Shown piece after piece: positions 4,072 to 13,010 of a stretch of 44,450 nt of DNA (positions are counted from its first letter, which is position 1; the number at the start of each line of letters is the position of its first letter). Origin of the DNA: Escherichia phage vB_EcoP-101101UKE1; sequence record MZ234012.1. One strand, given 5' to 3'. A program made the position numbers and the translations under genes. The notes under the pieces were generated by a model. The model did not search any database. It had not been told where the DNA came from and saw only the letters and a program-made list of their open reading frames with translations.

Positions 4072-6060
4072 ATGGCTATTATTCAGAATGTACCGTGTCC
4101 TGCCTGTCAAAAGAATGGACATGATATTACTGGCAACCATCTTATGATATTTGACGACGGAGCAGGATACTGTAACCGTGGTCACTTCCATGATAACGGT
4201 AAACCTTATTACCACAAGCCAGAGGGTGGCATCGAGATAACCGAATTGCCTATTACTGGCAATATCAAATATACACCTTCTCAATTCAAAGAAATGGAGA
4301 AGGAAGGGAAGATAAGCGACCCTAAGCTACGCGCCATCGCTCTTGGTGGTATGCGTATGAAAGACCGTTGGGAGGTCATGAATGAGCAAGAAAGGGCAGA
4401 CCAAGAAGCAGAGTGGAAACTTGATGTTGAATGGTTCCTCACGCTTAAGCGTAAGAACCTTGTTTCCCGACACATTCGCGGCGACATTTGCGCATTGTAT
4501 GATGTACGTGTTGGGCACGATGAAGAGGGTAGAGTCTCACGGCATTACTATCCGCGCTTCGAAAAAGGTGAGCTAGTAGGCGCTAAATGTCGCACATTAC
4601 CTAAAGATTTTAAGTTTGGTCATTTAGGTAAACTCTTTGGTATGCAAGATCTTTTCGGTATGAATACTTTGTCTCACGTGTTAGACAAGGGAAGACGAAA
4701 GGATTGCTTGCTTATTGTGGGTGGGGAACTGGATGCACTAGCAGCGCAGCAGATGCTCCTTGATTCTGCCAAGGGCACTAAGTGGGAAGGCCAGCCATAC
4801 CATGTATGGTCTGTCAACAAAGGCGAGTCTTGCCTTGAAGAGATAGTGCAGAACCGTGAGCATATCGCCCAATTCAAGAAGATTATATGGGGTTTTGATG
4901 GAGATGAGGTAGGGCAGAAGCAGAATCAGCAAGCGGCTCGCCTGTTTCCTGGCAAATCCTATATCCTTGAATACCCCTCTGGTTGCAAAGATGCTAACAA
5001 GGCATTGATGGCTGGCAAGGCTAAAGAATTTGTAGATGCATGGTTTAATGCCAAGTCATCTGATGAAGTCTTTGGTAGCCAGATTAAATCTATCGCATCT
5101 CAAAGGGATAAGCTCAAGGCTGCACGTCCAGAGCAAGGACTATCATGGCCTTGGCCTAAGCTGAACAAGGTAACGCTAGGTATTCGTAAGAATCAGCTTA
5201 TCATTGTAGGTGCAGGGTCTGGTGTAGGTAAGACTGAGTTCCTTCGTGAAGTAGTTAAGCACCTCATTGAAGAACACGGTGAATCTGTAGGCATCATTTC
5301 TACAGAAGACCCGATGGTCAAGGTGTCCCGTGCTTTTATCGGCAAGTGGATTGATAAGCGTATTGAGTTGCCGCCAACCAACGACCCGAAAGAAGATGGA
5401 TACCGTGAGGTGTTCGACTACACCGAGGAAGAAGCTAACGCCGCCATTGATTATGTAGCTGATACAGGTAAGCTGTTTGTAGCTGACCTAGAGGGTGACT
5501 ATTCGATGGAAAAGGTAGAGCAAACTTGCCTAGAGTTTGAGGCTATGGGTATTTCTAATATCATCATTGATAACTTAACGGGGATTAAATTAGATGAGCG
5601 TGCTTTTGGTGGGAAGGTTGGTGCACTTGATGAATGCGTCAAGCGGATTGGTACTATCAAAGACCGACACCCGGTTACTATATTCCTTGTATCACACCTT
5701 ACACGTCCTCCGGCAAACCGTACCCAACACGAAGAAGGTGGCGAAGTTATCCTTTCTGACTTCCGAGGCTCAGGCGCTATCGGATTCTGGGCATCTTACG
5801 CCTTGGGGATTGAGCGTAATACAAGAGCTGAAACGCTTGACGAAAGGACTACCACGTACATCTCATGTGTCAAAGACCGCGACCAAGGTATCTGGACTGG
5901 AACCAAGGTCATGCTTAAGGGTGACATTCAAACCGGACGTTTAATGGAACCACAAGCCCGTACTAAGTCATTTGACACCGGCGAAGCAAGGCAACAAGAA
6001 GTACCGGATTTACCGGACACTATAGAAGAGACTAACTTCGATGAAGAAAGTGAGTTCTGA
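4072..6060 (+). CDS. DNA primase/helicase (T7 gp4-like), 662 aa
   Basis: N-terminal zinc ribbon CPACQKNGHD...CNRGH, helicase Walker A GAGSGVGKT, and an acidic C-terminal tail ending DEESEF. Confidence 0.92.
   Translation: MAIIQNVPCPACQKNGHDITGNHLMIFDDGAGYCNRGHFHDNGKPYYHKPEGGIEITELPITGNIKYTPSQFKEMEKEGKISDPKLRAIALGGMRMKDRWEVMNEQERADQEAEWKLDVEWFLTLKRKNLVSRHIRGDICALYDVRVGHDEEGRVSRHYYPRFEKGELVGAKCRTLPKDFKFGHLGKLFGMQDLFGMNTLSHVLDKGRRKDCLLIVGGELDALAAQQMLLDSAKGTKWEGQPYHVWSVNKGESCLEEIVQNREHIAQFKKIIWGFDGDEVGQKQNQQAARLFPGKSYILEYPSGCKDANKALMAGKAKEFVDAWFNAKSSDEVFGSQIKSIASQRDKLKAARPEQGLSWPWPKLNKVTLGIRKNQLIIVGAGSGVGKTEFLREVVKHLIEEHGESVGIISTEDPMVKVSRAFIGKWIDKRIELPPTNDPKEDGYREVFDYTEEEANAAIDYVADTGKLFVADLEGDYSMEKVEQTCLEFEAMGISNIIIDNLTGIKLDERAFGGKVGALDECVKRIGTIKDRHPVTIFLVSHLTRPPANRTQHEEGGEVILSDFRGSGAIGFWASYALGIERNTRAETLDERTTTYISCVKDRDQGIWTGTKVMLKGDIQTGRLMEPQARTKSFDTGEARQQEVPDLPDTIEETNFDEESEF
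6008..6030 (+). promoter_or_regulatory. phage RNAP promoter (ATTTACCGGACACTATAGAAGAG)
   Basis: Exact consensus, embedded in the 3' end of the primase/helicase coding sequence. Confidence 0.75.
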
Positions 6061-6136: not shown

Positions 6137-6820
6137 ATGTATAAATTAGTATTGAATGTAGGTGATTATGTTCGTAACATCAATGTAACCTCACGTAGAT
6201 ATCGTTGCCGTGGTACTGTGACTAATGTAAGTGAAAACAGCTACTATGTAGAGTACAGTAATGGTATTAGACAGGCTTATCAAAAGGAATCAGCACATAA
6301 CTACCTTGAGAAGATTGGAGAGGTAAGCAATCAATGTAAGTGCGTACACGATGAGGTTTGCGATAAGTGTGCCCGCCAGCTGCATAAAATGCTATTATAC
6401 CCTCTTCGCTATGGTGCTGGTGTTCAAACATTAGCAGAGGCATATGGCAAAAGTAAGATCACACTCAAGAAAGAGCGCCGCAATGTAATCACTGGTAAGA
6501 CTCAAAGTGAAATGATTAAACTATGTGGCACTGCATTAGGTGTTACGCAGTTTAATACTCGTTCATTGGGTAAATCCACAGGGCAAGCTATGGTAAAGAT
6601 TGGCGAAGCCATGATGCATCCAAATGTACCTGTACGAATCATGGATGTTGACCATGCAATCACAGAACACGGTACGCAACGACGTGTAATTAATAAGCAT
6701 TTTGCCGACACTATAGAAGGTATTATTCGTAAGCAAGAGTTGAAGGGTCTTCACATCTTAAATGGTGAAGAATTACTGTACCTACCTATCGTTACTGAAG
6801 AAACATACGTGAATATCTAA
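6137..6820 (+). CDS. hypothetical protein (227 aa)
   Basis: ORF with RBS ggaga 6 nt upstream of ATG 6137 (the track's 6131 start is a TTG). No motif recognised. Confidence 0.5.
   Translation: MYKLVLNVGDYVRNINVTSRRYRCRGTVTNVSENSYYVEYSNGIRQAYQKESAHNYLEKIGEVSNQCKCVHDEVCDKCARQLHKMLLYPLRYGAGVQTLAEAYGKSKITLKKERRNVITGKTQSEMIKLCGTALGVTQFNTRSLGKSTGQAMVKIGEAMMHPNVPVRIMDVDHAITEHGTQRRVINKHFADTIEGIIRKQELKGLHILNGEELLYLPIVTEETYVNI
6699..6720 (+). promoter_or_regulatory. possible weak phage promoter (ATTTTGCCGACACTATAGAAGG)
   Basis: Core GACACTATAGAAGG is perfect but the upstream specificity region has 3 mismatches. It lies inside the 6137..6820 ORF. Confidence 0.35.
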
Positions 6821-7272: not shown

Positions 7273-7380
7273 ATGCCACGTGATTATGATTCTGATTGGG
7301 ATTTCCAAGATTCAATGAATCCAAAACCAGAACGTTCAGATGATTACTACGAAACAGAGGCAATGTATGAAGACTATTAA
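7273..7380 (+). CDS. small acidic protein (35 aa, MPRDYDSDWDFQDSMNPKPERSDDYYETEAMYEDY)
   Basis: Strong RBS ggaggtg before ATG 7273. Below the ORF-track size cutoff. Confidence 0.35.
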   Translation: MPRDYDSDWDFQDSMNPKPERSDDYYETEAMYEDY

Positions 7381-7585
7381 ATTAAGCAAGGTTTGCTCTT
7401 GCGGTAAAGGTTATCGCAGTCGTATTGATGGTAAGTGTGGGCATTGCAGGTCTAAGAAAGAGGCTGCTTTGTTTGATAAGTACCACAATGAATTAGCATA
7501 TAACTATCCTCATCTAACACCTAATTCTTTATTAGGACTTGGTTATAGGGTTAAATACTTTGGAGCAATCTATGAAATCAATTGA
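7367..7585 (+). CDS. small zinc-ribbon protein (CxxC...CxxC)
   Basis: Internal start MKTIKLSKVCSCGKGYRSRIDGKCGHCRSKK with RBS agagg. Its 3' end overlaps the DNA polymerase start. Confidence 0.4.
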   Translation: MKTIKLSKVCSCGKGYRSRIDGKCGHCRSKKEAALFDKYHNELAYNYPHLTPNSLLGLGYRVKYFGAIYEIN

Positions 7586-10118
7586 TTGGAAGAAGGAGGC
7601 AGAAGGTCGTATCCTCGTGATGGATGCGGAAGCTAAAGGACTCCTTGACGCTATCCGATATGGACACCGTGAAGATGTGCATATCATTTGCTGCATGGAT
7701 TTGCTTACTACCGAGGAGTTTCTCTTCTTTGACCCGTATGAGATGCGTGACCCTGAAGCAAGAGAACGCCTGAAGGAATGGGAAGGTCATCAAGACGGAA
7801 CCTTGGTTGATGGTGTTAACTTCCTGAAGCATTGTGAAGCTATTGTGTCACAGAACTTACTAGGGTATGACGGACTTCTCTTTGAGAAAGCATTCCCTGA
7901 TATTTGGAAGGGCTTTAACTATACCGAGAAGCGCGGTAAGGGCAGACTCCGTGCTGACCTGTGTCCGGTGCGAGTCATGGATACGCTGGTGATGAGTCGC
8001 CTGTTAAACCCCGATAGACGCCTTCCTCCGCAAGCATATGCCAAAGGTATGGGTAACGTCGCCCCTCACTCAATTGAGGCGCACGGCATCCGTATAGGCC
8101 GCTATAAACCGGAGAACGAGGACTGGTCTAAACTAACTGACCACATGGTTCACCGTGTACGTGAGGACGTGGCGATTGGTCGTGACTTGTTCCTCTGGCT
8201 CTTTAACGGGGAATGGATGGAGCACAAACGCCGTGGCGTGAATAAACGCACTGGCCTAGGTATTGAGACAGCCTTCCACATGGAGTCCATTGTGGCGCTG
8301 GAGATGAGCCGTCAGGCAGAGCGTGGATTCCGTCTGGATATTGACAAAGCACTAGCGCGATGCGAAGAACTGGACGCTAAGATTGACGAGACAGTCGCAG
8401 CGTTCCGCCCTCACATGCCTATGCGTATCAAGTCTAAGCCTTTTAAACCGGAAGAAAAGAATGAAGTATGCCAACGCGCAAATGAGTATGGAGCTAGCAA
8501 CAATATACCTACTGTCCTTGACCCCTCACACTTTCTTCATGCCGAGAGACGAGGAGATCGCAAGACAGTATGGAGTGTCACTACTAAGTCTGGTGATTGG
8601 TCGGCTAGTGTCAAGAAAGACTTTCCTCACCTTAGAGGAAACCGTAATGACACGCCAAGCATCAAGTGGATTGGCGCTTACTCGCCTGTTACTTTCGAAG
8701 AGATTCCCTTGGGTAACAGGGATACAGTTAAGCAAGTGCTCTATGATTATGGATGGAAAGGTGTTGAATTTAACGATACCGAGCAAGCGCATCTCGATGA
8801 GCACGGAGTGTTACCCAAACCTTGGAGTGGTAAGATAAATGAAAAGTCCCTTACTTTATGGCAAGAGAGAGCCGCACGTGAAGGTAAAACAGTCCCTGAT
8901 TGGTGCTTGGGTATCGCTGCATGGTACATACTCGTATCCCGTCGTGGTCAGATACTCAACCGTGGTGACGTTGAAGCCTTCAACGAGAAGGGAACGTGGC
9001 CCTCGCAGGCTGGTGTACGAAAGTGTCGCGGCCTTGTACCTGTAGCATTCAACAAGGAGCTAGGAATCAATGCGCAGCAATACTACGAGAGGTACGGATG
9101 TTGGCCTACGTCTGACAAAGATGATGGAGAGTGGCGTGTTCCAGCTGTTGCTATTAGCATTGGCACTTCTACGTTCCGTATGCGTCATCGTAACGTGGTC
9201 AATATTCCTGCCCGTGGCTTGTATCCTTTACGTGATTTATTCATAGCAGGGAAAGGCAAGCTAATCCTTGGTTGTGACGGTGCAGGTCTTGAACTGCGTG
9301 TCCTGTCTCACTTCATGAATGACCCTGAGTACCAAGAGATTGTACTGCACGGTGATATTCATACGCATAACCAGATGAAGGCTGGTCTTCCTAAGCGTGA
9401 TATGGCGAAGACGTTTATATACGCCTTCCTCTATGGCTCTGGTATAGCCAACCTTGCAGCAGTATGTGGTGTTACTGAGGAAGAAATGAAGGAAGTTGTG
9501 GCAAGATTCGAGATTGAACTGCCGTCTCTTGCACGTCTTCGTGAGAATGTTATCGCACAAGGTAACAAGTTTGGCTACCTGCAAGCACCTGATGGGCATT
9601 GGGGTCGCATCCGCATGTCTGGTGGTGAACTTAAAGAGCACACGATGCTTAACGTATTACTCCAGATGACTGGCTCTTTGTGTATGAAATATGCATTAGT
9701 CAAGGCATTTGCAGTAATGCGCAAGGAAGGTGTAGCCTTGGATGCTATGGGAAATCCTTGTGGTGTGGCTAACGTGCATGATGAAATCCAGATGGAAGTT
9801 CCTGAAGAGGAGGTCTTGTATCTTAACTACGACCTACCTTTCACCTTAGATGGGTTCGAAACAGAGAAGGCTGCCGTGAAGGCAGTGTTCGATGCAGAGG
9901 AGAAACGTGTTCATGTGGATTCTGAAGGACGTATGTGGTCTGCTGCAAACCTCGTTAGTGTTGATGCTGATGCTGGTGTATTGCATTGCCAGCGCCGTTA
10001 TCACCGTGCAGGTCATATCATTGCCGACGCCATGACTTGGGCAGGGCAGTATCTGAAGATGCGTTGCCCGATGGCAGGCGAATATAAGATTGGCGCAAGT
10101 TGGAAGGAAACACACTGA
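7572..10118 (+). CDS. family A DNA polymerase with 3'-5' exonuclease domain (T7 gp5-like)
   Basis: Exo I motif ILVMDAEAKG, pol motif A DGAGLELRVLSHF, motif B KTFIYAFLYG and motif C VHDEIQ. Start chosen at ATG 7572 (RBS tggag); the track ORF opens at 7539. Confidence 0.92.
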   Translation: MKSIDWKKEAEGRILVMDAEAKGLLDAIRYGHREDVHIICCMDLLTTEEFLFFDPYEMRDPEARERLKEWEGHQDGTLVDGVNFLKHCEAIVSQNLLGYDGLLFEKAFPDIWKGFNYTEKRGKGRLRADLCPVRVMDTLVMSRLLNPDRRLPPQAYAKGMGNVAPHSIEAHGIRIGRYKPENEDWSKLTDHMVHRVREDVAIGRDLFLWLFNGEWMEHKRRGVNKRTGLGIETAFHMESIVALEMSRQAERGFRLDIDKALARCEELDAKIDETVAAFRPHMPMRIKSKPFKPEEKNEVCQRANEYGASNNIPTVLDPSHFLHAERRGDRKTVWSVTTKSGDWSASVKKDFPHLRGNRNDTPSIKWIGAYSPVTFEEIPLGNRDTVKQVLYDYGWKGVEFNDTEQAHLDEHGVLPKPWSGKINEKSLTLWQERAAREGKTVPDWCLGIAAWYILVSRRGQILNRGDVEAFNEKGTWPSQAGVRKCRGLVPVAFNKELGINAQQYYERYGCWPTSDKDDGEWRVPAVAISIGTSTFRMRHRNVVNIPARGLYPLRDLFIAGKGKLILGCDGAGLELRVLSHFMNDPEYQEIVLHGDIHTHNQMKAGLPKRDMAKTFIYAFLYGSGIANLAAVCGVTEEEMKEVVARFEIELPSLARLRENVIAQGNKFGYLQAPDGHWGRIRMSGGELKEHTMLNVLLQMTGSLCMKYALVKAFAVMRKEGVALDAMGNPCGVANVHDEIQMEVPEEEVLYLNYDLPFTLDGFETEKAAVKAVFDAEEKRVHVDSEGRMWSAANLVSVDADAGVLHCQRRYHRAGHIIADAMTWAGQYLKMRCPMAGEYKIGASWKETH

Positions 10119-10234
10119 TGGATAGGCTTGACATTGTTTACCTATTCTTCACTTTCTTTCTTACACTCCTTATGCTTGCTTGTTATGGGAGTATGAGACT
10201 AGATATATCTGATGAAGAAGAGGGTTACGACTAA
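10118..10234 (+). CDS. small hydrophobic peptide (38 aa, MDRLDIVYLFFTFFLTLLMLACYGSMRLDISDEEEGYD)
   Basis: ATG overlaps the polymerase stop (TGATG). One predicted transmembrane helix plus an acidic C-terminus. Confidence 0.3.
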   Translation: MDRLDIVYLFFTFFLTLLMLACYGSMRLDISDEEEGYD

Positions 10235-10332
10235 TGCAAACTGCTTTTATTATTCTTGGTATCATATTATTTATGGTAGTATTCTGGGCTTTCTCTGGCA
10301 TTGACCCAGATTGTGATGGTAACTACGACTGA
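10234..10332 (+). CDS. small hydrophobic peptide (32 aa, MQTAFIILGIILFMVVFWAFSGIDPDCDGNYD)
   Basis: TAATG-coupled to the preceding peptide, with the same architecture (TM helix plus acidic tail ending YD). Confidence 0.3.
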   Translation: MQTAFIILGIILFMVVFWAFSGIDPDCDGNYD

Positions 10333-10391
10333 GTTATACTCAAGGTCACTTACGAGTGGCCTTTATGAATAACTTAACTGGAGGAAATATA

Positions 10392-10949
10392 ATGAATGAA
10401 CTGAACACTAAGATGCTCAAGAAAGTTTATAATCTTGTATATAGTATCACGGGCCTACACTTCTACCCTGTAGGCGGTGCGGTTCGTGACACCCTGTACG
10501 GATTAACACCTAAAGACTATGATATGGTGTTGCCTGTAGGGTCTATGGCAGATTCTCAGGCGCACGAAATCATGGAAAATATCTCTGAAGAGATGGCAAT
10601 TATGGGATTTAGTACCAAACTCTACCAATCATACGGTATCAATTTAGGTTATGAAATCAACCCTACCTCTTTTCAGGCTATGTTCCTTAGCTGCATGAAA
10701 GTGCAGATGCGTAATTGCCAACTTGATTTGCTTCTTTCTAAGGCTGAAACCATCCAAGATCATGTACGTAAGCACGATTGCAATATGAATATGGTGTGGT
10801 TCGATGGTAAAGATATCAAGTGGGAGCACGGCGGTGTTACTCCTTTCGTTCCTGTGTTAGAGTTCAACCCTGACGGATGTGATCGTCGCATTGCTTACAT
10901 GGACAAGAAGCGCCATGAACTTATCCGTCACAAATTAATGCATCTTTGA
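10392..10949 (+). CDS. minimal Pol-beta-superfamily nucleotidyltransferase with CCA-adding-enzyme/poly(A)-polymerase head motif
   Basis: Motif VGGAVRDTLYGLTPKDYDMV (GGxVRD followed by DxD) matches the class II CCA-adding enzyme head signature. RBS ggagga 7 nt before ATG 10392. Protein is only ~185 aa. Confidence 0.6.
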   Translation: MNELNTKMLKKVYNLVYSITGLHFYPVGGAVRDTLYGLTPKDYDMVLPVGSMADSQAHEIMENISEEMAIMGFSTKLYQSYGINLGYEINPTSFQAMFLSCMKVQMRNCQLDLLLSKAETIQDHVRKHDCNMNMVWFDGKDIKWEHGGVTPFVPVLEFNPDGCDRRIAYMDKKRHELIRHKLMHL

Positions 10950-11035: not shown

Positions 11036-11413
11036 ATGTCTATGGTAACTACTCTGGTATTTGTAGCTCAATACTTTCGTGGTCTGGCTAATAAGTTCAA
11101 GTCCAAGGCTATCAAAGCTATTGAGTCTCGCATCGAGGCAGTACAGGCAGAGCAAGTTAAAGTTGAAGAACATCGTAGTTCTCAAATGATTGACTGCCAT
11201 AACCGCTACTATGCATCTCGTGATGACCTTAATGCACGCCAAGTCAAAGAGGTTGAAGAGATGCTGGCACGTCACCAGCAAGAGCGCGACAGCCTGAAAG
11301 CTGAATTTGAAGAGAACAAGGCATCCATCGCCCTTGTACATCAAGCCGCATCTGACAACCTGAAGAAAGAGATTGTTATGCTGGAAATTGAGTTAGACAA
11401 CCTGACCAAATAA
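11036..11413 (+). CDS. hypothetical membrane-anchored coiled-coil protein (125 aa)
   Basis: RBS aggag. N-terminal hydrophobic segment MSMVTTLVFVAQYF followed by heptad-like charged sequence. Confidence 0.45.
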   Translation: MSMVTTLVFVAQYFRGLANKFKSKAIKAIESRIEAVQAEQVKVEEHRSSQMIDCHNRYYASRDDLNARQVKEVEEMLARHQQERDSLKAEFEENKASIALVHQAASDNLKKEIVMLEIELDNLTK

Positions 11414-11490: not shown

Positions 11491-12297
11491 ATGGCACGTG
11501 GTGATTTTGATTTTGGTGCTCAGGTTACTAAAGCTGAAGGTAAGGTTTTTAAGAACCCTGAAGTTGGTGATCATGAAGCAGTAATCTCTGGCATCATTCA
11601 TGTGGGTTCCTTCCAAGATATCTTTAAGAAAGGTAATACCACTGAAGTTAAGAAGCCAGCAAACTTTGTTCTTGTTAAGATTGTACTGATGGGTGACGAT
11701 GACAAGAACGAAGATGATTCTCGCATGGAACAGTGGATGGCTGTGCCTCTGAAGTCTGGTGACAAGGCAACCTTGACTAAGTTCCTGAATGCAGTTGACC
11801 CTAAAGAGCTGCTTGGTGGTTTCGATGACTTCATCGGTGAATGCCTGACTGCAACTATGGTTGGCTCTGGCGACAAGAATGATGATGGTACTTTCAAGTA
11901 TGTTAACTGGAAAGGCTTTGGCGGTATGCCTGATAAGTTGAAGAAGCTTGTACTGGCTCAGGTAGAAGAGGAAGGTCTGTCTATGACAGGTCATATCACC
12001 TTCGACAAGCTGACCAAAGAAATCCTTGATGACATTCCTGCTAACTTGGTGCGTCAATACTTCCTTAATGAAACACCTCGTGGTAAGAACCTGTCTGTTG
12101 CTGGTTCTCACGTAGAAGCAATCATTAAAGCTGCTCGTGAAGAAGACCCAGAGTGGAAGAAAGCCAAGAAGAAAGATGACGAGGATGCTACTCCAGCTAA
12201 TCGTAAGTCTCTGGATACTGGCGAGTCTGTTCCACAGGAAGTACCTGAAGCAGAAGATACTCCTGCACCGGAGATGGATGAGGACGCGGAATATTAA
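11491..12297 (+). CDS. putative single-stranded DNA-binding protein (gp2.5-like), 268 aa
   Basis: Own promoter, strong RBS aggag, highly biased codon usage, and an acidic C-terminal tail ending DEDAEY (T7 gp2.5 has an acidic tail ending in F). The assignment is tentative. Confidence 0.45.
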   Translation: MARGDFDFGAQVTKAEGKVFKNPEVGDHEAVISGIIHVGSFQDIFKKGNTTEVKKPANFVLVKIVLMGDDDKNEDDSRMEQWMAVPLKSGDKATLTKFLNAVDPKELLGGFDDFIGECLTATMVGSGDKNDDGTFKYVNWKGFGGMPDKLKKLVLAQVEEEGLSMTGHITFDKLTKEILDDIPANLVRQYFLNETPRGKNLSVAGSHVEAIIKAAREEDPEWKKAKKKDDEDATPANRKSLDTGESVPQEVPEAEDTPAPEMDEDAEY

Positions 12298-12629: not shown

Positions 12630-13010
12630 ATGTTCAAGATTGAAACTATCGTAAACCGTGTTGTTAAAGGTGCTGCTCTGGTATCCGTTGAGTCTTTCAT
12701 TATCGTCGATGAAGCTGATCAACTGGTAGCTGGTACTAAGGCTTACGATACCCGTGAAGAAGCTCAGGCTAAGATTGACAGCATGGGTAACTTCGCTGCT
12801 GGTCTGGAGTTCGCTCGCGCTTGCTTCCCTGAGCAGGCTGACAAAGCTCAGATTGGTAAGGCTAATATCGTAGCTGAATATCTGGATTGGATTGCTGCTG
12901 GTAAGCCGGTGAAAGAAGTTAAGTCTGCTGAAGAAGCTGAATCTCAGGCAGTAGAAGAAGAAGTAGCTGCACCGGTAGATGCTCCGGTAAGCGAAGAGGA
13001 AGAGTTTTAA
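12630..13010 (+). CDS. abundant acidic protein (126 aa) with C-terminal acidic tail ending SEEEEF
   Basis: Strong RBS aaaggag, own promoter, codon usage like the capsid gene, and a terminator directly downstream. Confidence 0.5.
   Translation: MFKIETIVNRVVKGAALVSVESFIIVDEADQLVAGTKAYDTREEAQAKIDSMGNFAAGLEFARACFPEQADKAQIGKANIVAEYLDWIAAGKPVKEVKSAEEAESQAVEEEVAAPVDAPVSEEEEF

Follow-up and report, generated by a model that had tools for sequence, protein, structure and literature searches.

Two micropeptide genes behind the DNA polymerase gene of an SP6/K1E-like phage: coding signal, distribution and a proposed role in the host envelope

The question raised by this locus is whether two very short open reading frames directly downstream of a phage DNA polymerase gene encode proteins and, if so, where those proteins might act. 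The frames, here called ORF1 and ORF2, lie in a 44,450-nucleotide sequence of Escherichia phage vB_EcoP-101101UKE1 (MZ234012.1), which is referred to here as the window. The window is a near-complete Vectrevirus genome (SP6/K1E-like podophage), and its positions 9800 to 10700 are 99.9% identical to OR424385.

Position and identity of the two reading frames

The features of the locus are listed in Table 1. The original prediction had given the positions of the two frames, their lengths of 38 and 32 aa and their TGATG and TAATG overlaps, and all of these proved exact on the sequence. At the first junction the polymerase stop codon TGA occupies 10116–10118 and the ORF1 ATG 10118–10120; at the second the ORF1 stop codon TAA occupies 10232–10234 and the ORF2 ATG 10234–10236. 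The predicted products are MDRLDIVYLFFTFFLTLLMLACYGSMRLDISDEEEGYD (ORF1, 38 aa) and MQTAFIILGIILFMVVFWAFSGIDPDCDGNYD (ORF2, 32 aa). In the record of phage LL11, ribosome-binding sites are annotated at the places equivalent to both Shine-Dalgarno sequences. Matches to the SP6-type phage promoter numbered eight in the window, with none expected. A frameshift fusion of the polymerase with ORF1 was considered and rejected, since no slippery heptamer was seen near the junction on reading the sequence.

Table 1. Features of the polymerase/micro-ORF transcription unit and its borders (positions in the window)
Feature	Position	Strand	Remarks
SP6-type phage promoter	6699..6719	+	Heads the transcription unit with the polymerase gene and both micro-ORFs; 3 mismatches to SP6 promoter consensus
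DNA polymerase gene, K1E gp13 homologue	7572..10118	+	Annotated as DNA-directed DNA polymerase in OR424385; stop overlaps ORF1 start
Shine-Dalgarno-like AAGGA	10104..10108	+	Within the final polymerase codons, 9 nt 5' of ORF1 ATG; read from sequence
ORF1, 38 aa, K1E/K1-5 gp13.5, phrog_15860	10118..10234	+	MDRLD N-terminus, hydrophobic helix, acidic tail DISDEEEGYD
Shine-Dalgarno GAGGG	10220..10224	+	In the EEEG codons of the ORF1 tail, 9 nt 5' of ORF2 ATG
ORF2, 32 aa, K1E/K1-5 gp14, SP6 gp15, phrog_4539	10234..10332	+	Hydrophobic helix, no basic residue, acidic tail IDPDCDGNYD
DPDCDGNYD, DxDxDGxxD motif	10303..10329	+	Fits positions 1–9 of an EF-hand loop
Two-tier RNA hairpin, conserved	10330..10376	+	Starts at the ORF2 stop codon; constant 3' limit of the variable slot
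Next SP6-type phage promoter	10949..10969	+	End of the polymerase/micro-ORF transcription unit

Profile matches, tblastn identity and gene order identify ORF1 and ORF2 as gp13.5 and gp14 of the K1E/K1-5/SP6-like phages. ORF1 matched PHROG 15860 over residues 1–38 of 38 (E = 6.4e-25) and ORF2 matched PHROG 4539 over residues 1–28 (E = 2.9e-17); neither PHROG has an assigned function. In all, 67 phage records were matched by ORF1 and 68 by ORF2. Amino-acid identity to K1E was 84% for ORF1 and 91% for ORF2, and both were 100% identical to OR424385. The GenBank counterparts are K1E/K1-5 gp13.5 (YP_424989) and gp14 (YP_424990) and LL11 CPT_LL11_019 and 020; the SP6 counterpart of ORF2 is gp15 (gene 14 in an alternative numbering). 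As in the K1E-type orthologues, the frames lie directly after the family-A DNA polymerase gene and before the gp15 homologue, and the K1E, K1-5, SP6 and LL11 genes have the same position after the polymerase and the same overlaps as in the window. The window ORF1 carries S31 where most homologues have P31; apart from a nucleotidyltransferase gene, which lies downstream of the ORF pair in the window and is missing from most relatives, nothing essential differs otherwise.

It had been supposed that the frames fall below the usual ORF-calling cutoffs. They are indeed short, but they had not been overlooked: orthologues are annotated as CDSs in five genomes or records (OR424385, K1E, K1-5, SP6 and LL11), and the micro-genes entered GenBank with the SP6, K1-5 and K1E genomes. 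Because they are already annotated features, sighting them is no discovery. What the present analysis adds is evidence of coding, the cassette slot, the focus of selection on the tail-proximal helix and tail, and the restriction of both families to few phages of enterobacteria.

The expectation that each peptide has one predicted transmembrane helix and an acidic tail ending in YD was borne out by hydropathy and AlphaFold2. Each consists of one hydrophobic helix followed by an anionic tail of 10–14 residues. The single 19-residue hydrophobic stretch has a Kyte-Doolittle mean of 2.25 in ORF1 and 2.68 in ORF2, and the AlphaFold2 models predicted a helix at residues 3–35 of ORF1 and, for ORF2, a helix at 2–20 followed by a coil tail. 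The net charge of the tail is −5 in ORF1 and −4 in ORF2, and ORF2 has no Lys, Arg or His. The LL11 annotation likewise gives a single TMD, "TMD N in C out".

The two peptides had also been described as similar to each other. This holds for their architecture, which they share together with the end PDxxxxYD, but not for their sequences, which have no significant similarity. An hhalign comparison gave a probability of 1.2% (E = 0.044) over the eight columns of PDxxxxYD, and Smith-Waterman shuffles gave p = 0.1–0.5 for the complete peptides; with only the tails, p was 0.07. The sole DNA common to ORF1 and ORF2 is TACGACTRA at their ends. This similarity is too weak to demonstrate paralogy.

Coding signal and distribution among relatives

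Conservation of the reading frames among relatives had been proposed as a check on the prediction. The frames passed it, being kept with in-frame pN/pS values of 0.22 for ORF1 (95% bootstrap 0.13–0.37) and 0.23 for ORF2 (0.11–0.42), against 0.82–1.02 in the two shifted frames. The sample comprised 17–19 relatives that keep both reading frames, and because their divergence is modest (74–100% amino-acid identity) the conservation argument is limited in power. Selection was uneven along the peptides. The C-terminal half of each helix and the tail are nearly invariant despite synonymous changes, and pN/pS of the C-terminal halves was 0.12 for ORF1 and 0.09 for ORF2, comparable to the 0.09 found for the last 120 polymerase codons. 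All codon changes in the tails were synonymous except P31S in ORF1 and C27Y in ORF2. The ORF1 tail is not conserved merely for the Shine-Dalgarno sequence of ORF2, since phages with ORF1 and without ORF2 keep the tail just as invariant. The substitution pattern indicates that both micro-ORFs are protein-coding and under purifying selection. Disrupted copies do occur: ORF1 has a 4-nt insertion in ULINTec6, and ORF2 of L007 has three indels and a GTG start. The benefit of the genes may therefore be conditional, or some of these copies may be sequencing errors.

Depending on the relative, both genes, ORF1 only, ORF2 only or neither was found. ORF1 alone is present in L009, L044-46 and L048, ORF2 alone in SP6, UAB_Phi78, mutPK1A2 and L011, and neither in L010, L012-14, L016 and L027. 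In every configuration the stop/start overlap of one nucleotide is held as TGATG, TAATG or TAGTG, and the same hairpin adjoins the final stop codon. As judged from these genome comparisons, ORF1 and ORF2 are independent optional cassettes between the polymerase stop codon and the conserved RNA hairpin. Their patchy presence in close relatives indicates dispensable accessory genes that are not part of the replication machinery. Other accessory genes are found in this slot too, among them a nucleotidyltransferase, HNH endonucleases and an 86-aa ORF. The hairpin has a free energy of −17.5 kcal/mol (z = −3.5) and had no match in Rfam; its 41-nt core is nearly invariant among 19 distinct relatives, and L014 and L016 have three compensated pairs.

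Phages with the genes infect Escherichia, Salmonella, Citrobacter, Raoultella and Klebsiella aerogenes. None of the Klebsiella, Erwinia and Vibrio relatives inspected has the genes, and Proteus phages were missing from the matches. A phmmer search with ORF2 of 1.84 billion representatives returned its own cluster only; scans of IMG/VR with degenerate DNA for both tails returned the same SP6-like contigs only; none of 185,579 bacterial genomes matched the ORF2 tail in such a scan; and window positions 10100–10345 had no blastn match in E. coli complete genomes. Both families thus appear to be limited to a narrow group of enterobacteria-infecting phages. Small hydrophobic ORFs after the polymerase were considered as a trait of a wider group, but none was seen in the Klebsiella (Ulipvirus), Erwinia Era103 or Vibrio relatives. 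One metagenomic clade (L031-L036), the only such clade found, has an unrelated pair of small hydrophobic ORFs in this place.

Neither peptide matched Pfam or NCBIfam, the PADLOC-DB defense and counter-defense profiles gave 0 families at E ≤ 1, and ORF1 had no match in the PDB. Nothing in these family, defense-system and structure comparisons speaks for or against the earlier suggestion that such peptides might be inhibitors of host division or transport. Among the PHROG, Pfam, NCBIfam, PADLOC, PDB and phmmer results there was no homologue with an assigned function, and a literature search on gp13.5, K1-5, Vectrevirus membrane proteins and SP6 essentiality screens found nothing relevant.

Proposed expression and action

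The reading that we prefer, with a probability of roughly 0.55, is that ORF1 and ORF2 encode accessory, anionic, single-pass inner-membrane micropeptides that are made by reinitiation and probably act on a component of the host envelope. Ribosomes ending the polymerase would reinitiate at the overlapping ATG, and a Shine-Dalgarno sequence lies 9 nt upstream of each ATG; if so, synthesis of the peptides would fall in the middle (replication) period and scale with translation of the polymerase. Insertion into the inner membrane would be post-translational, because the peptides are too short for co-translational targeting. The probable topology is N-in, C-out, with the membrane potential driving the tail outward, because there are almost no basic residues and 4–8 acidic ones; this argument is based on general charge rules. 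Since selection is strongest on the tail-proximal half-helix and the tail, the action most likely involves specific helix-to-helix and tail contacts with the host component. The partner would be an envelope component of Escherichia, Salmonella or Citrobacter, with a transporter, an envelope-biogenesis enzyme and a membrane-embedded defense or exclusion effector as candidates, and the outcome would be a fitness benefit that depends on the host, not an essential step.

There are precedents for such peptides. Iap of phage D3 (31 aa) inhibits the O-antigen polymerase Wzy, LysM (37 aa) is a single-gene lysis peptide of an ssRNA phage that targets MurJ, and AcrZ, MgtS, KdpF and CydX of E. coli are small single-pass regulators of membrane proteins. 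Like ORF1 and ORF2, regulators of the Iap, LysM and AcrZ type have about 30–50 aa, one transmembrane helix and no enzymatic domain, and their specificity is expected to come from helix packing and a short juxtamembrane tail, as proposed here; the phage examples, Iap and LysM, also have the accessory, host-specific role proposed here. The likeness does not extend to an established sequence relationship, and the tails of ORF1 and ORF2 differ in being unusually anionic and almost without basic residues. If a host target is found, the peptides would be added to the small number of phage micropeptides whose membrane target is known. Because K1-5/SP6-like phages are used therapeutically, an accessory gene with an effect on host range or exclusion would be of practical relevance.

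With the opposite topology (N-out, C-in) the tails would be cytoplasmic and might imitate the acidic, aromatic-ended tails of replisome proteins, docking a tail-binding factor, the phage polymerase or some other, at the membrane, or competing for it with the helicase and SSB. We consider this unlikely, although several observations suggested it. Translational coupling links the micro-ORFs to the polymerase gene directly 5' of them. Three proteins of the window have similar C-termini, the primase-helicase ending in DEESEF, the gp16 homologue (which we take to be a gp2.5-like SSB) in DEDAEY and a 126-aa protein in SEEEEF, compared with DEEEGYD for ORF1 and DGNYD for ORF2. Tails of T7-type gp2.5 SSB and gp4 helicase, like those of ORF1 and ORF2, are short, disordered and strongly acidic with an aromatic residue near the end. 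The N-terminus of ORF2, with four uncharged residues, would cross the membrane at small cost. Binding of an acidic tail to polymerase has a precedent in T7, where a basic patch of the polymerase receives the gp2.5 tail, the last residue of which, Phe, is essential (PMC12339929). In the micro-ORFs, however, the aromatic residue is penultimate, not C-terminal; the tails are borne on a membrane helix and are probably outside the cytoplasm, to judge from the scarcity of basic residues, the acidic flank and the C-out annotation in LL11; and the EF-loop-like tail of ORF2, described below, is better suited to the cation-rich periplasm. Moreover, many close relatives with the same polymerase (C-terminus 97–100% identical) lack one or both of these dispensable genes, so the replisome does not need them.

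It is quite improbable that the peptides damage the membrane in the manner of type I toxins, holins or antiholins, depolarizing or permeabilizing the inner membrane for host shut-off or lysis timing. Their size and single hydrophobic helix are like those of type I toxins (Fst, Ldr, Hok and TisB), which are small, hydrophobic toxic peptides controlled by cis- or trans-encoded antisense RNA; in Fst of Enterococcus the helix even precedes a charged tail that is partly acidic, and small lethal membrane peptides are common in phages. The promoter scan, however, gave no convincing promoter for antisense RNA across the ORFs, and selection is concentrated on specific tail residues, not on general hydrophobicity. 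Of the features expected of a holin or antiholin, at least one predicted transmembrane domain is present, whereas the basic charged tail and the late lysis-cassette location are lacking: holin C-terminal tails are basic and those of ORF1 and ORF2 purely acidic, with no basic residue in ORF2, and the genes are part of the replication unit, which is served by a middle promoter and bounded by the promoter sites at 6699 and 10949, with the annotated holin, endolysin and spanin genes far downstream (K1E gp38 and gp43-45 are >23 kb away). Least probable of all is that the stretch is kept for nucleic-acid reasons, as an mRNA 3' region or recombination junction, and that the frames are incidental and non-functional as proteins. 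Hydrophobic ORFs arise in random T-rich sequence, and these two are T-rich and very short; frame-disrupted copies exist; the stretch is dispensable in many relatives; and ACNACTRA at all module ends (polymerase ...ACACACTGA, ORF1 ...TACGACTAA, ORF2 ...TACGACTGA) has the look of a recombination junction. Against this, substitutions are strongly biased to synonymous ones in the annotated frame only, and start codons, Shine-Dalgarno spacing and stop/start overlaps are kept through sequence change. The adjacent hairpin is conserved at the nucleotide level, whereas the ORFs vary with codon periodicity.

The acidic tail of ORF2

Across its six frames the window has D.D.DG at one place, the ORF2 tail; when the tail was shuffled, DxDxDGxxD arose in 0.2% of the shuffles. 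The D residues at loop positions 1, 3, 5 and 9 and the G at 6 are invariant in relatives; only the non-ligand position 4 varies (C or Y). An EF-hand loop has 12 residues, with ligands at positions 1, 3, 5, 7, 9 and 12 (Glu), Gly at 6, an aliphatic residue at 8 and two flanking helices. Against PROSITE PS00018, positions 1–7 and 9 of the ORF2 tail fit and position 8 is Tyr, which is outside the set. The peptide ends at position 9 and so lacks loop positions 10–12, the bidentate Glu12 among them, and the exiting helix. With no Pfam EF-hand match either, ORF2 falls outside the EF-hand family, and ORF1 has no such motif.

A speculative extension, to which we give little credence, is that gp14 is a membrane-anchored half EF-hand, with the invariant DPDxDGNYD as a putative periplasmic loop for a divalent cation (Ca2+-type) and a site that a homodimer or pairing with gp13.5 might complete. 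The transmembrane helix would serve as the entering helix, placing F20 and I23 at loop positions −4 and −1. If true, gp14 would be a minimal metal-binding or metal-sensing micro-protein by which the phage acts on the host envelope. In the PDB comparison, ORF2 residues 19–32 (AFSGIDPDCDGNYD) aligned with lanmodulin (6mi5, AFDKLDPDKDGTLD) at a non-significant E = 0.8. All four lanmodulin loops align to these residues, and the alignment pairs the Pro at loop position 2 of ORF2 with the same residue in lanmodulin, for which this uncommon Pro has been noted (PMC12603986).

Layout, annotation and distribution of the micro-ORFs

A 901-base query around the micro-ORFs matched Escherichia phage vB-Eco-KMB47 (OR424385) at 99.9% identity and dozens of Vectrevirus genomes, K1E, K1-5 and LL11 among them, at 92–99%. 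Judged from these matches, the window is nearly the whole genome of an SP6/K1E-like podophage (Autographiviridae, Molineuxvirinae). The two coupled micro-ORFs predicted after the polymerase, ORF1 and ORF2, were present with exact coordinates, lengths and 1-nt stop/start overlaps (see table). The Shine-Dalgarno sequences AAGGA and GAGGG are located 9 nt 5' of the ORF1 and ORF2 ATG, respectively, and the LL11 annotation places ribosome-binding sites at equivalent positions. A hydrophobic helix followed by an acidic tail was supported for each peptide: each has one strongly hydrophobic 19-residue stretch (Kyte-Doolittle 2.25 for ORF1 and 2.68 for ORF2), acidic and basic residues number 8 vs 2 in ORF1 and 4 vs 0 in ORF2, and AlphaFold2 (single-sequence) predicted a helix at residues 3–35 of ORF1 and at 2–20 of ORF2, the latter followed by a coil tail.

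Features of the window discussed in the text
Feature	Position	Strand	Remark
Primase-helicase	4072–6060		tail ...DEESEF
SP6-type promoter	6699		5' flank of the polymerase-ORF1-ORF2-nucleotidyltransferase unit
35-aa ORF	7273–7380		tail ...AMYEDY
Polymerase stop TGA	10116–10118	+	last base common to ORF1 ATG
ORF1, 38 codons	10118–10234	+	TAA stop; last base common to ORF2 ATG
ORF2, 32 codons	10234–10332	+	ATG overlaps ORF1 TAA by one base
Two-tier hairpin	10330–10376	+	starts at ORF2 stop codon; −17.5 kcal/mol, z = −3.5
Nucleotidyltransferase, 185 aa	10392–10949		PF01743, 23.5 bits; phrog_1614, E = 5e-39
SP6-type promoter	10949		3' flank of the same unit
gp15 homologue	11036–11413
gp16 homologue	11491–12297		tail ...DEDAEY
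126-aa protein	12630–13010		tail ...SEEEEF

The ORFs, noted as falling below typical ORF-calling cutoffs, are nonetheless already known. Both are annotated CDSs in OR424385, in K1E and K1-5 (ORF1 as gp13.5, ORF2 as gp14) and in LL11, where they carry the label 'TMD N in C out'; ORF2 is also annotated in SP6 as gp15 (gene 14 in an alternative numbering), and UAB_Phi78 orf21 (32 aa) is listed as an unknown protein homologous to SP6 Gp15 (PMC4837284). ORF1 matched PHROG 15860 (E = 6e-25) and ORF2 matched PHROG 4539 (E = 3e-17), both unknown-function families; neither had a match in Pfam, NCBIfam or PADLOC. They are long-annotated accessory genes of a narrow phage group. The present analysis adds, modestly, the evidence that they are coding, their behaviour as cassettes bordered by a fixed hairpin, and the resemblance of the ORF2 tail to an EF loop.

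The tblastn hits to ORF1 came from 67 records of phages of Escherichia, Citrobacter, Raoultella and Klebsiella aerogenes, and those to ORF2 from 68 (Escherichia, Salmonella, one Klebsiella aerogenes phage); no Proteus phage was in either hit list. A homologous polymerase C-terminus was present in 215 records, 92 of them at ≥90% identity. Both ORFs were absent from the Klebsiella pneumoniae, Erwinia and Vibrio relatives inspected. An exhaustive phmmer search with ORF2 against 1.84 billion representatives returned its own cluster only; within IMG/VR, both tail motifs were confined to this set of phage contigs, the ORF2 motif occurred in none of 185,579 bacterial genomes, and DNA across both ORFs found nothing in E. 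coli complete genomes. Two records appear mis-annotated: OR594179 (SHAK7163) matches this Vectrevirus region, yet its record places it in Studiervirinae/Kayfunavirus and calls it a myovirus, and OR594181 (SHAK7704) labels the ORF1/ORF2 region 'similar to head-tail adaptor'.

Coding evidence

Homologous DNA was collected from GenBank records and from 39 IMG/VR loci obtained via the polymerase C-terminus, and pN/pS was determined for the pooled 13 distinct ORF1 and 11 distinct ORF2 sequences. In the annotated frame it was 0.22 for ORF1 (bootstrap 0.13–0.37) and 0.23 for ORF2 (0.11–0.42) vs 0.82–1.02 in shifted frames; the last 120 polymerase codons gave 0.09. The reading frames are conserved among relatives, the check proposed with the original prediction, and by this substitution pattern ORF1 and ORF2 are real genes. 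Constraint was uneven, with N-terminal halves at 0.33 and 0.35 and C-terminal halves at 0.12 and 0.09 for ORF1 and ORF2, respectively. Among the sampled relatives, ORF1 codons 32–38 (DEEEGYD) had five synonymous variants and no replacements, and the only replacement site in the ORF2 tail was C27 (Tyr in SP6). Because the ORF1 tail was equally invariant in phages without ORF2, we rejected the encoded Shine-Dalgarno sequence as the reason for its conservation. The 1-nt overlap was kept in every arrangement, as TGATG, TAATG or TAGTG (GTG start), which argues for selection on termination-reinitiation coupling. Two copies appeared disrupted: ORF1 of ULINTec6 by a 4-nt insertion, and ORF2 of locus L007 by three indels together with a GTG start, possibly a sequencing error because L007 is a metagenomic contig.

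A variable slot with a fixed hairpin border

The content of the slot between the polymerase stop codon and the conserved hairpin varied across relatives. K1E-like phages have both ORFs; SP6, UAB_Phi78, Kenya-K30, GRNsp51, mutPK1A2 and L011 have only ORF2, coupled straight to the polymerase; CrRp3, R4596, Raoultella P3a, LF31P3 and NTNC80A (with an HNH endonuclease gene 5' of ORF1) have only ORF1; and loci L010, L012–14, L016 and L027 have neither. Other occupants were the nucleotidyltransferase, HNH endonucleases and an 86-aa ORF. Every module ends in ACNACTRA, and the final stop always adjoins GTTATACTCAAGG...; short-homology recombination between such ends could therefore allow precise gain or loss of a module. 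The 41-nt hairpin core (GTTATACTCAAGGTCACTTACGAGTGGCCTTTATGAATAAC) was nearly invariant in 19 distinct relatives and more conserved than the flanking genes, with three compensated base pairs in L014 and L016. An Rfam search had no match; by analogy with T7, the hairpin is probably an RNase III-type processing site or a 3'-/mRNA-stabilising structure.

In Escherichia phage NTNC80A the homing-endonuclease gene (186–717 of locus L044) lies between the polymerase and ORF1; the junction is mosaic, with a substituted ORF1 N-terminus (MSTSD...) and a polymerase C-terminus that shares only 54% identity with that of the window. The nucleotidyltransferase, with a poly(A) polymerase/CCA-adding head domain, was at the same spot in only 4 of 87 close records, and similar genes lie 3' of the polymerase in Proteus phage Pm5460 (L029) and metagenomic loci L013, L014, L016, L020 and L021; it may be an accessory gene for tRNA repair or counter-defence. 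A metagenomic clade (L031–L036; polymerase C-terminus 53% identical) has two unrelated hydrophobic ORFs (30 and 32 aa) that lack acidic tails, ~10–205 nt past the polymerase stop and 5' of a 249-aa ORF (putative ThyX-like); in L033–L035 the first has a different C-terminal end.

Possible functions of the peptides

The original prediction described the two peptides as similar, a likeness that held for their architecture and was not significant for their sequence. Profile-profile comparison aligned 8 columns (PDEEEGYD vs PDCDGNYD) with a probability of 1.2%, and the Smith-Waterman score was reached by 10–50% of shuffles (7% for tails alone). Common ancestry is possible, not demonstrable, from these alignments.

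Because SP6-type promoters flank them, the polymerase, ORF1, ORF2 and nucleotidyltransferase are, on promoter positions, one middle-period unit. The peptides would be made by ribosome reinitiation after polymerase translation. In the most likely reading, both are anionic micropeptides that span the inner membrane once, and we infer that they act on a host envelope component. Alternatively, cytoplasmic tails might contact the polymerase. The primase-helicase, the 126-aa protein and the gp16 homologue, a putative gp2.5-like SSB of the phage, have strongly acidic C-termini that finish in an aromatic residue, as does the 35-aa ORF. Tails of this kind bind a basic patch of the polymerase in T7 (PMC12339929). 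The ORF1 (...EEEGYD) and ORF2 (...DGNYD) tails resemble these loosely, with the aromatic residue penultimate, in support of this alternative; a likely C-out topology of both peptides and the dispensability of the genes weigh against it.

Against PDB sequences, ORF2 matched only lanmodulin and an EF-hand protein, not significantly (E = 0.8 and 1.1). Its residues 19–32 (AFSGIDPDCDGNYD) aligned to every EF loop, e.g. AFDKLDPDKDGTLD, and DPDCDGNYD fits positions 1–7 and 9 of the PROSITE EF-hand loop. The D.D.DG pattern occurs once in the six frames of the window, in this tail; DxDxDGxxD arose in 0.2% of tail shuffles, and in relatives the ligand positions were invariant, with variation only at non-ligand position 4. 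Calmodulin-type loops rarely have proline at position 2, whereas lanmodulins typically do (PMC12603986). Unlike an EF-hand, ORF2 stops at loop position 9 and so lacks Glu12 and the exiting helix; a true EF-hand was rejected by definition, and metal binding by this motif is speculation.

Several records and phrog_7450 name the gp15 homologue a 'polysaccharide chain length determinant protein'. This name is probably spurious, because Pfam gave no match in its support, the protein appears coiled-coil, and two Vibrio phages have comparable coiled-coil ORFs at the same position.
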